11,052 bases of DNA, taken from positions 1-11,052 of the forward strand of contig JAEOUH010000025.1 in assembly GCA_016839365.1 (NCBI GenBank), in the 5' to 3' direction. A program made the translations under genes and the position numbers. How positions within the stretch are numbered: the stretch's first letter is position 1; every line of letters begins with the position of its first letter. Of the stretch, positions 7,565-10,162 are shown piece by piece. The notes below the pieces were generated by a model. The model did no database searches, was not told the origin of the DNA, and saw only the letters and a list, made by a program, of their open reading frames with translations. The stretch is from Candidatus Hermodarchaeota archaeon (GTDB lineage: Archaea; Asgardarchaeota; Hermodarchaeia; Hermodarchaeales; Hermodarchaeaceae).

Positions 7565-8821
7565 ATGTCCTCCCAGAAAACCATGCCCAAACAAGCTGAA
7601 GTCAACATCGGTCTAGTGGGTCATGTCGACCATGGGAAGACCACCTTAGCAAAAGCGTTATCAGGTGAATGGACTGACCGCCATTCAGAGGAGATTCGTC
7701 GCGGTATTTCCATCAAATTAGGATATGCTGATGTGACGTTTTTCAAATGTGGGAGCTGTCGTGGTGCTGCTGCATATACAACTTCACCGAAGTGCCCCAA
7801 ATGCGGAGGGAAAGCTGAACCCTTACGACGGATCTCTCTCGTGGATGCACCTGGGCACGAAGTTTTGATGGCCACCATGATATCAGGCGCCGCATTGATG
7901 GATGGAGCAATCTTGCTCATTGCCGCAGATGAGAAATGTCCCCAACCACAAACACGGGAACACCTAGCAGCCTTGGAAATCATCGGGGTTGACAAAATAA
8001 TTATTGCCCAAAACAAAGTAGAAGTAGTATCCGAAAAGGAAGCCGTAGCCAATTATAATCAAATCAAACGCTTCGTCGCGGGATCCATTGCAGAAAACGC
8101 CCCAATAATCCCCATTTCCGCCATGTTTGGAACCAATATTGATTTCCTCATTCAAACCATTGAACAAGTCATTCCCACTCCCAAACGGGATTTAGATAAG
8201 CCTGGACTGTTTTATGTGGCCCGTTCCTTTGACATCAATAAACCAGGTACACGACCCAAGGATTTGCTTGGAGGGGTCATAGGTGGTACAATCATCCAAG
8301 GGAAGGTATCGGTGGGCGATGAACTTGAAATCCGACCCGGAATCCCCGTGAAAGGAAAAAGCACCATCACTTACGAGCCGATATTTACATCAGTGAAAAG
8401 TATTCAGACTGGGACTGGAAAATCTCTCAAAACCGCTCATCCCAGCGGCTTAATTGGAATGGGAACCAACCTTGACCCGTCACTGACACGTGCAGATGCT
8501 TTGATTGGCAACCTTGCAGGTCCTACGGGAAAGCTTCCTCCAATTGTTCAGCAAGTAACACTAGAATCACACCTACTCAAACGCGTAGTTGGTATGGTGG
8601 AACAGACGGTCGTCCAAGGGATAAAACCGAATGAAACGCTGATGCTGATAGTTGGCTCTTCAGCAACAGTAGGTCAGGTCACAAACATTGGAGGTAAAGA
8701 CAAGATTTCTTTTACACTTAGAAAACCGGTCGCCGTGATTCCCAATCAACGTGTCGCGATAAGCCGGCAAATCGAAATGCGGTGGCGGTTAATTGGATGG
8801 GGCACGGTCGTTGCCGAATAA
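7565..8821 (+). CDS. eif2g: Translation initiation factor 2 subunit gamma
   Basis: EVNIGLVGHVDHGKTT, RGISIKLGY, CxxC...CPKC zinc knuckle, DAPGHEVLMATM, PQPQTREH, RSFDINKPG and WRLIGWG. Confidence 0.98.
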   Translation: MSSQKTMPKQAEVNIGLVGHVDHGKTTLAKALSGEWTDRHSEEIRRGISIKLGYADVTFFKCGSCRGAAAYTTSPKCPKCGGKAEPLRRISLVDAPGHEVLMATMISGAALMDGAILLIAADEKCPQPQTREHLAALEIIGVDKIIIAQNKVEVVSEKEAVANYNQIKRFVAGSIAENAPIIPISAMFGTNIDFLIQTIEQVIPTPKRDLDKPGLFYVARSFDINKPGTRPKDLLGGVIGGTIIQGKVSVGDELEIRPGIPVKGKSTITYEPIFTSVKSIQTGTGKSLKTAHPSGLIGMGTNLDPSLTRADALIGNLAGPTGKLPPIVQQVTLESHLLKRVVGMVEQTVVQGIKPNETLMLIVGSSATVGQVTNIGGKDKISFTLRKPVAVIPNQRVAISRQIEMRWRLIGWGTVVAE

Positions 8822-9236
8822 TTTGCAGCCGTCTTATGGGACGAAAGTTTTGTTAGATACTAATTTTCTTCTACTCCCTTTTCAACGGCAAATTGATATC
8901 TTTGATGAAATTCCACGGCTAATCGGTGGGCACGTTCATTTTGTACTCCTCCCACAAATTATCGATGAATTGGAATGGCTACAGTCTGAAGGAACTGCCA
9001 AAGAAAAGCGTGCGGCGGAAAGCGCGCATCAGTTGATGGAACAATTTTGTCAAGTACCCACCGATCTTCCCGCTTCCATTCAAGACCTTGATGCAGATTC
9101 CGCGCTTCTCCGATTTGCACAAGAGACAGGAGCAGTTGTGGCCACCAATGATGGTGCACTACGCCGAAAACTAATAAAACAAGGTTCTCGTGCCATATTT
9201 TTACGAAAACTAGCTGTATTAGCCCTTACCGGGTAA
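8811..9236 (+). CDS. PIN-domain protein, Fcf1/Utp24-like (DUF188-type)
   Basis: Acidic PIN motifs VLLDTNFL, DELE, DAD and VATND..LR; conserved position between eif2g and rpoE1. The start is uncertain (TTG at 8793, 8811 or 8823). Confidence 0.88.
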   Translation: MPNNLQPSYGTKVLLDTNFLLLPFQRQIDIFDEIPRLIGGHVHFVLLPQIIDELEWLQSEGTAKEKRAAESAHQLMEQFCQVPTDLPASIQDLDADSALLRFAQETGAVVATNDGALRRKLIKQGSRAIFLRKLAVLALTG

Positions 9237-9272
9237 GACAAACGCTAAAAACAAGAGCACAGCAATTGAATA

Positions 9273-9286
9273 GAAAAGCTTATCAG
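9273..9286 (+). promoter_or_regulatory. Possible BRE/TATA promoter for the rpoE1 unit
   Basis: GAAAAG-CTTATCAG about 40 nt upstream of the proposed rpoE1 start. Confidence 0.5.
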
Positions 9287-9323
9287 CCCGACTTGTAATC
9301 GGTCGGGAGTCGGAGGCAGGACC

Positions 9324-9926
9324 ATCTACCAAGCTGTCATTATAAAAGGGCATGTGCGCATTCCGCCGAGTCGGTTCAGCGAAGACCTGTATGAGGTTGC
9401 CGAAGAAATTCTTCGTGAACAATACGAGGGAATCATCGATGTCGACCTTGGGTTCATCATCGCGGTCACCGAGGTACTCGAGATCGGAGTAGGGAAAATC
9501 ATTCCTGGTGATGGCGCAACCTATCATGATGTGAAGCTTGAAGTCCTCACCTTTGATCCCAAAGTAAACTTCCTTACCCAAGGGGAGGTTGTGGAAGTTG
9601 TTGATTTCGGAGCTTTCATTCGCTTAGGTCCGCTTGATGGGCTGTGCCATGTGAGTCAAATCACCGATGACTTCTTCTCATACGATCCCCGAAGTGCGGC
9701 CTTGGTCGGCAAGGAAACGGGGCGAGTCATCACAGAAGGCGATTTAGTGCGCACTCGAATCGTTGCAGTCAGCATCGATGGTGGTGCCCGCAGTGGAAAA
9801 CTTGGCTTGACAATGCGACAGCCTTTTCTAGGCAAGTTTGAGTGGATTAAAGAAGAAATCGCAAGATTACTTGAATCAAAGCGAAAAGCGGAGAAGAAGA
9901 AAGAAGGAAAAGACAAGGAAAAATAA
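9324..9926 (+). CDS. rpoE1: DNA-directed RNA polymerase subunit Rpo7 (E')
   Basis: VRIPP, GKIIPGDGA, the S1-domain motif FGAFIRLGPLDGLCHVSQI and LTMRQPFLGK. The family-like N-terminus extends upstream of the ORF-track GTG (9354) to an ATC at 9324. Confidence 0.95.
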   Translation: MYQAVIIKGHVRIPPSRFSEDLYEVAEEILREQYEGIIDVDLGFIIAVTEVLEIGVGKIIPGDGATYHDVKLEVLTFDPKVNFLTQGEVVEVVDFGAFIRLGPLDGLCHVSQITDDFFSYDPRSAALVGKETGRVITEGDLVRTRIVAVSIDGGARSGKLGLTMRQPFLGKFEWIKEEIARLLESKRKAEKKKEGKDKEK

Positions 9927-9973
9927 TATGCTCCTTATTTTCCTAATCCTCCCATCCCATAATGGTGATGAAA

Positions 9974-10162
9974 ATGGCAAAACGAAAAGCATGCAAAGTC
10001 TGTCATACGATGACAACCAAATCGCATTGTCCAGCCTGCAAAAGTACCAATCTTTCAGAGAGCTTCTCTGGGCTAGTTTTGATATTTGATCCCGAGCATT
10101 CCATGATTGCCCAAAAACTCAACATCACTAAAGATGGGGAATACGCTCTCCAAGTCCGTTAG
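9974..10162 (+). CDS. spt4: Transcription elongation factor Spt4 (RpoE'')
   Basis: KACKVC...CPAC zinc ribbon, FSGLVLIFDPEHSMIA and GEYALQVR. ATG at 9974 follows GGTGA. Confidence 0.95.
   Translation: MAKRKACKVCHTMTTKSHCPACKSTNLSESFSGLVLIFDPEHSMIAQKLNITKDGEYALQVR

Follow-up and report, generated by a model that had tools for sequence, protein, structure and literature searches.

An RNA polymerase subunit gene, rpo7, probably initiated at a genus-wide AUC codon in an Asgard archaeon

The rpo7 gene of a Candidatus Hermodarchaeota archaeon is probably translated from a near-cognate AUC codon at position 9324, selected by a Shine–Dalgarno (SD) motif and read by initiator tRNA. Comparing sequences across relatives, we put the probability of this reading at about 0.85. 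The ATC start is very probably a habit kept across the genus and common to a few other core genes. Initiation of this gene (rpoE1/Rpo7) at AUC had been proposed in a first-pass annotation of the window, that is, the whole 11,052-nt stretch analysed here (contig JAEOUH010000025.1 of assembly GCA_016839365.1), and the comparative evidence strongly supports it.

In the window sequence, a GGAGG motif (9312–9316, forward strand) is followed by a 7-nt spacer (9317–9323) and by ATC at 9324–9326, on the same strand. These bases, noted in the first-pass annotation, were confirmed, and the arrangement is conserved genus-wide. The next codons (TAC CAA GCT GTC ATT ATA AAA GGG CAT GTG CGC ATT CCG CCG) specify Y-Q-A-V-I-I-K-G-H-V-R-I-P-P. 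Upstream, the rpo7 frame is closed by a TGA (9267–9269, forward strand), and it holds no ATG, GTG or TTG from there to the ATC. The first canonical in-frame start is GTG at 9354–9356 (forward strand), codon 11 of the gene; the earlier claim that none precedes it also stood. The coding sequence comprises 200 codons plus TAA (9324–9926, forward strand) and is defined by Pfam matches, matches to solved structures and an AlphaFold2 (AF2) model. It lies between a PIN_9-domain gene (8793–9236) and spt4/rpoE'' (9962–10162), both on the forward strand and both assigned by Pfam, within the neighbourhood S6e, aIF2-gamma, PIN_9, rpo7, spt4, DUF359, the usual archaeal order.

Both GGAGG and ATC are invariant in the genus alignment, and GGAGG is unchanged in 16/16 aligned family sequences. 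Counted over the first-in-frame starts of long open reading frames in the source genome, the commonest spacing from GGAGG to ATG is 7 nt (27 cases), with one or two cases at 1–2 nt; the SD-to-ATC spacing in rpo7 equals this modal value. No Rfam family matched between 9150 and 9450, and conserved RNA structure was not found around the rpo7 SD (RNAalifold −5.4 kcal/mol, zero compensatory pairs). Two upstream open reading frames, a TTG-TAA pair at 9293–9298 and an 11-codon frame starting with TTG at 9266, were rejected as not conserved. Readthrough from the PIN gene into rpo7 was rejected on account of three in-frame stops between that gene and the ATC. One RNA sequencing run (X19) yielded a single 278-nt contig at 9459–9736, inside rpo7.

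The gene product is Rpo7 (RpoE'), the stalk subunit of RNA polymerase, with an SHS2_Rpb7-N domain (PF03876, 2.3e-17, residues 9–64) followed by an S1 domain (PF00575, 5.2e-11, residues 85–147). Matches to solved chains included 1go3_E (1e-61), 4qiw_E (3e-55) and 8cro_E (4e-55). The Rpo7 proteins of M. jannaschii (1GO3, chain E), T. kodakarensis (4QIW) and Sulfolobus (2PMZ/2WAQ) have the same SHS2 and S1 architecture. Solved archaeal Rpo7 proteins share ~50–60% identity with the window protein over its full length, have the same N-terminal register and likewise have spt4 adjoining. Counting the ATC as codon 1, residue 2 of the query aligns with residue 2 of the chain in all seven distinct solved archaeal Rpo7 chains. 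An AF2 model computed from an input of 16 sequences had a mean pLDDT of 84 overall and 91 for residues 1–10, with residues 2–13 forming a confident first β-strand.

The codon aligned with Met1 of outgroup and solved Rpo7 proteins is ATC in 14/14 genus genomes that have the gene, and two metagenome variants (L116 and L165) carry ATC there as well. The sister genus shows ATT, ATT and CTG there, and L111, a basal member of the family recovered from a hydrothermal-vent metagenome, shows GTG. In Asgard outgroups (Odin-, Baldr- and others) precisely this codon is ATG. Orthologues in the outgroups and in L111 show a canonical start at the aligned position. Where the outgroup genomes have ATG, the focal family thus has ATC, ATT, CTG or GTG, and the solved proteins begin at the same residue. 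Every state at Rpo7 position 1 in the family and its outgroups is AUG or a single mismatch from it. Within the family, the start codon has changed several times (GTG; ATT to CTG; ATC), and ATG is absent from ~20 sampled sequences. The 5' ends of rpo7 in close relatives, which the first-pass annotation had singled out as a check, therefore read ATC, ATT or CTG, not ATG. Within the genus the ATC keeps its third base without exception, whereas Ile codon 7 is free to vary.

Reading from the upstream stop to the IPP motif, four family genomes (L013, L015, L016 and L017) contain not one canonical start. The sister genus offers no canonical codon until 39–47, and a start there would lose the SHS2 domain. 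Among the genus genomes, the variable sites at codon positions 1/2/3 number 1/1/7 over codons 2–10 and 3/3/17 over codons 2–21; for the 36 nt upstream, with the frame extended backwards, the figures are 3/7/8. This bias towards third positions is found only downstream of the ATC, which indicates that coding constraint begins there.

On the proposed mechanism, GGAGG would pair with the 3' end of 16S rRNA and bring the AUC that follows 7 nt downstream into the P site, where initiator Met-tRNA would pair with it through a single mismatch at the third codon base, so that ATC 9324–9326 would be read as Met and the product would be full-length Rpo7 with the N-terminus Met-Tyr-Gln. Compared with AUG, the AUC should initiate far more weakly, and the translation rate would be low. 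Decoding as Met and low efficiency are points that we infer, as is any selective reason for a weak start. The 16S rRNA 3' end was not found in the 84%-complete source assembly, and a tRNA scan of the same metagenome-assembled genome (MAG) returned only 16 tRNAs. E. coli initiates from AUC, AUU, AUA and CUG at ~1–2% of the AUG level, and AUC gives an N-terminal Met (10.1101/063800). In S. aureus, AUU and AUA starts behind an extended SD reach ~10–30% of AUG (PMC13009471). The S. solfataricus initiation factor aIF1 discriminates against AUU in vitro (PMC4705826), and the efficiency of the rpo7 AUC may accordingly be very low.

The rpo7 AUC would be one case of a lineage habit, in which several SD-led genes start with ACG, ATC, CTG or ATA. 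A genome-wide census of SD motifs followed by near-cognate codons, unreliable unless vetted across species, gave a weak and non-significant excess (~3.1 per near-cognate codon versus 2.2 per other codon). Given this weak excess, six candidates were vetted by Pfam, five of them against genus orthologues. One was the main orthologue of the general factor TFB (C15:13424–14350, minus strand; loci L234 and L270–L283). Here, GGAGG, 9 nt and ACG ACG are found in the 14 genus genomes with a readable start region, a 15th copy in the alignment being cut by a contig end. No ATG, GTG or TTG occurs between the upstream stop and the zinc ribbon in these 14 genomes, and in three of them the upstream in-frame stop is only six codons away. 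Judged from these alignments, TFB probably initiates at ACG.

The gene for PriS (C27:16452–17678, minus strand; loci L300–L314) has an invariant ATC 8 nt after AGGAGG; its −2 codon is ATG in 7/15 species and ACG, AAG or ACA in the rest. The gene for the 2-oxoacid oxidoreductase beta subunit, OFOR-beta (C27:5220–6065, minus strand; L315–L326), starts with CTG in three species, TTG in five, GTG in three and ATG in one, and in the source genome a TAA lies directly 5' of the CTG. GDH (C46:36239–37498; loci L331–L341) has ATA in the source genome only, and TTG, GTG or ATG elsewhere. A putative ATT start of Rpo5/RpoH (C87:73021–73656, L235) was rejected, as the 25 N-terminal codons are not conserved and contain stops in relatives; translation really begins at codon 26, an ATG or GTG. 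This gene also encodes an N-terminal Mrr_cat-like domain (restriction-endonuclease fold) ahead of the Rpb5 C-terminal domain. An alkyl-sulfatase-like gene (C7:28536–30440, L239) is a further candidate, with AGGAGG, 6 nt and ACG, a stop three codons upstream and the next canonical codon at 23. The start of aIF1 is conventional, GAGGT followed by ATG.

Across archaea, Rpo7 position 1 is non-canonical in 32/99 distinct loci, 15 of the 32 lying outside the focal family. These comprise ATT in Loki-like and Thor records, ATA and ACG in Thor, and ACG in Bathyarchaeia and Hadarchaeota. Loci with ACG, ATA or ATT at this position are L064, L086, L087, L089 and L098 (Bathyarchaeia), L077 and L079 (Hadarchaeota), L063, L068, L070, L072, L083 and L085 (Thor), and L028, L075 and L081 (Loki-like). 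Some loci outside the family have canonical alternatives nearby; the Thor ATA clade, for instance, has a GTG three codons upstream. In the control gene spt4, 3/97 loci lack any canonical start; with this background and shared ancestry, Rpo7 is only modestly enriched in non-canonical starts. In the rpo7 of L079, a TAA stands directly 5' of the ACG. In L065 (Helarchaeota) and L054, no canonical start precedes the CxxC motif of the spt4 adjoining rpo7, and in L065 an ATT directly follows a stop codon.

Upstream of the rpo7 SD, cross-genus alignment revealed a conserved 19-nt block, AATAGAAAAGCTTATCAGC (9269–9287, forward strand), probably a promoter of BRE/TATA type. The block is invariant across both genera, bar one change in one sequence, while its flanks vary, and it is unique in the genome. 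Read in frame, its third positions are as invariant as the others, so it is not conserved as coding sequence. A 14-nt core of the block recurs once, ~24 nt 5' of the ATG of a small-GTPase gene (C43:43537), a distance that fits a BRE/TATA-type promoter of a leaderless mRNA. A similar element, AAGCTTTTATAA, is present in the promoter region of aIF1. From this pattern, rpo7 would have its own promoter, with a predicted transcription start near 9305–9312 and a short leader carrying the SD. An N-terminal extension of Rpo7 through the block, from the ATA annotated by NCBI in one genus genome (G011), was rejected: every codon position of the block is invariant, no codon periodicity is seen between the block and the start codon, and in one genome of the sister genus a stop interrupts the frame six codons ahead of the start.

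A weak AUC start could also serve as a gene-specific regulatory device of the infC kind, in which Rpo7, together with TFB, rises as start-codon stringency (aIF1 activity) falls. Such a device would couple transcription capacity to the state of translation initiation; it would be a layer on AUC initiation, not a replacement for it. We consider it doubtful. In its favour, the near-cognate start of rpo7 has been kept through family-level divergence and several codon changes, and TFB, also a core transcription gene, has its ACG genus-wide. Rpo7 position 1 is near-cognate again in records from Thor, Loki-like, Bathy and Hadarchaeota lineages, and the discrimination of aIF1 against AUU in vitro (PMC4705826) is in keeping with it. 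The ATG-free turnover of the start and the fixed third base of the ATC, next to a freely varying Ile codon 7, hint at selection for a weak start. Against strong selection for weakness, however, an ATG has arisen two codons upstream in some species. Moreover, unrelated metabolic and replication genes carry near-cognate starts too, the spt4 control lacks canonical starts at a few loci as well, and the SD region shows no conserved RNA structure.

The first-pass annotation had gone further, suggesting by analogy with infC a sensor that ties RNA polymerase supply to the initiation factors encoded just upstream. As a gene-specific device this found no support, since unrelated genes of the genus are also near-cognate. 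Nor did the upstream genes single out the AUC: the order aIF2-gamma, PIN, rpo7, spt4 is also present in a relative with a GTG start, and rpo7 has its own conserved promoter-like block. In infC-type control, the product itself sets start-codon stringency. Here the product is Rpo7, which, unlike IF3, is not a fidelity factor; the archaeal fidelity factor is aIF1 (PMC4705826), encoded elsewhere by a separate gene with its own SD and an ATG start. Because Rpo7 is not an initiation factor, there would be no infC-type feedback loop. A slightly longer shot is that the Rpo7 AUC and the TFB ACG are kept by selection as a small translational regulon in Asgard archaea, linking the supply of the polymerase stalk and of the general initiation factor to aIF1 activity. 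If true, this regulon would be a prokaryotic precursor of non-AUG control as seen in eukaryotes.

SD-directed initiation at AUC itself resembles known bacterial cases. Non-canonical starts directed by an SD occur in E. coli infC and pcnB (AUU) and in S. aureus infC (AUA), cvfC1 (AUU), ccpN and citZ (AUA) (10.1101/063800; PMC4705826; PMC13009471). The rpo7 start shares with infC-type starts a single-mismatch codon, a strong or extended SD at proper spacing, conservation in relatives and an expected lower yield. It differs in belonging to archaeal aIF1/aIF2 initiation, in its codon, AUC, and in its product, a core RNA polymerase subunit and not a fidelity factor. Eukaryotic non-AUG initiation policed by eIF1 uses the same codon set (CUG, ACG, AUU, AUC and AUA), and aIF1 and eIF1 are homologous (PMC4705826; PMC5666671). 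As opposed to what happens in eukaryotes, the rpo7 codon is positioned by an SD, not by scanning, and, unlike eukaryotic uORFs and N-terminal extensions, the Asgard cases are main-ORF starts of housekeeping genes.

Translation could instead begin at the −2 codon, with the ATC read as an ordinary Ile. This codon is AGG in the source genome and AAG, ATG, AAA or AGA in relatives. It is ATG in three genus genomes (G001, G004 and G005), and database proteins beginning MNIYQ and MTIYQ reflect this; some metagenomic relatives (P0001 and P0007) also have an in-frame ATG two codons upstream, and all of these may use it. AGG and AAG are likewise single-mismatch codons, and PriS has the same layout. However, the −2 codon lies only 1 nt from GGAGG, a spacing that is rare for real starts (2 cases versus 27 at 7 nt), and in G003, G011 and G014 it differs from AUG at two bases (AAA or AGA). 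Sequence at the −2 and −1 codons varies freely, and the outgroups and solved structures all start at the ATC position, not at −2. With AGG, AAG, AAA or AGA in other species, the −2 codon is not a conserved start, and we regard its general use as improbable.

Still less probable is a start at GTG 9354, as most gene callers annotate, which would yield Rpo7 without its first ten residues. This GTG is the first canonical in-frame start, and many database entries begin MRIPP. Yet it is not conserved, being GTC in G011 (L013) and GTA in L165, and the sister genus has no canonical codon before 39–47. No SD lies 5' of it, and a start there would exclude codons 2–10, which are under coding constraint. 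As the first-pass annotation had argued, it would also truncate the first strand of the fold: by the AF2 model, 10/12 residues of β-strand 1 would be lost.

Errors of sequencing or assembly can be practically discounted, as can a start lost through gene decay: the source is a MAG (2.2 Mb, 93 contigs, 84% complete), but Logan contigs from three independent studies (X3, X5 and X9; mangrove, marine sediment and soil) cover 9270–9363 with no difference at 9324–9326, 14 separately assembled species genomes have the same bases, ATC and not ATG, and rpo7 is intact, present once per genome with a match, and under strong purifying selection.

AUC initiation of rpo7 bears on how the start codon is chosen in this lineage. 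The rpo7 of the family and the TFB of the genus have kept starts other than AUG, GUG or UUG across many species, and this Asgard lineage seems to choose its start codons less strictly than textbook rules for archaea would have it. Looser stringency in Asgard archaea would bear on the evolution of start selection in eukaryotes. The rpo7 AUC and TFB ACG leaders offer concrete material for studying aIF1-dependent discrimination in vitro. In bacteria, a handful of essential genes are known to have natural near-cognate starts. Searches of the literature for near-cognate starts of Rpo7 or of Asgard genes turned up no description of such starts on archaeal core transcription genes.

Near-cognate starts also lead gene finders to get such proteins wrong, and wrong calls distort Asgard alignments, counts of domains and sets of phylogenomic markers. 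ATC was given as the start in 0/19 database entries inspected. Public Rpo7 calls for the clade begin at no fewer than six places (proteins P0002, P0004, P0008–P0015, P0026, P0060 and P0071). The starts include MRIPP (codon 11), MYEVAEE, VDLGF or later (with the SHS2 domain lost), MNIYQ, and an ATA 18 codons upstream. The ATA start of one public call falls inside the promoter-like block.
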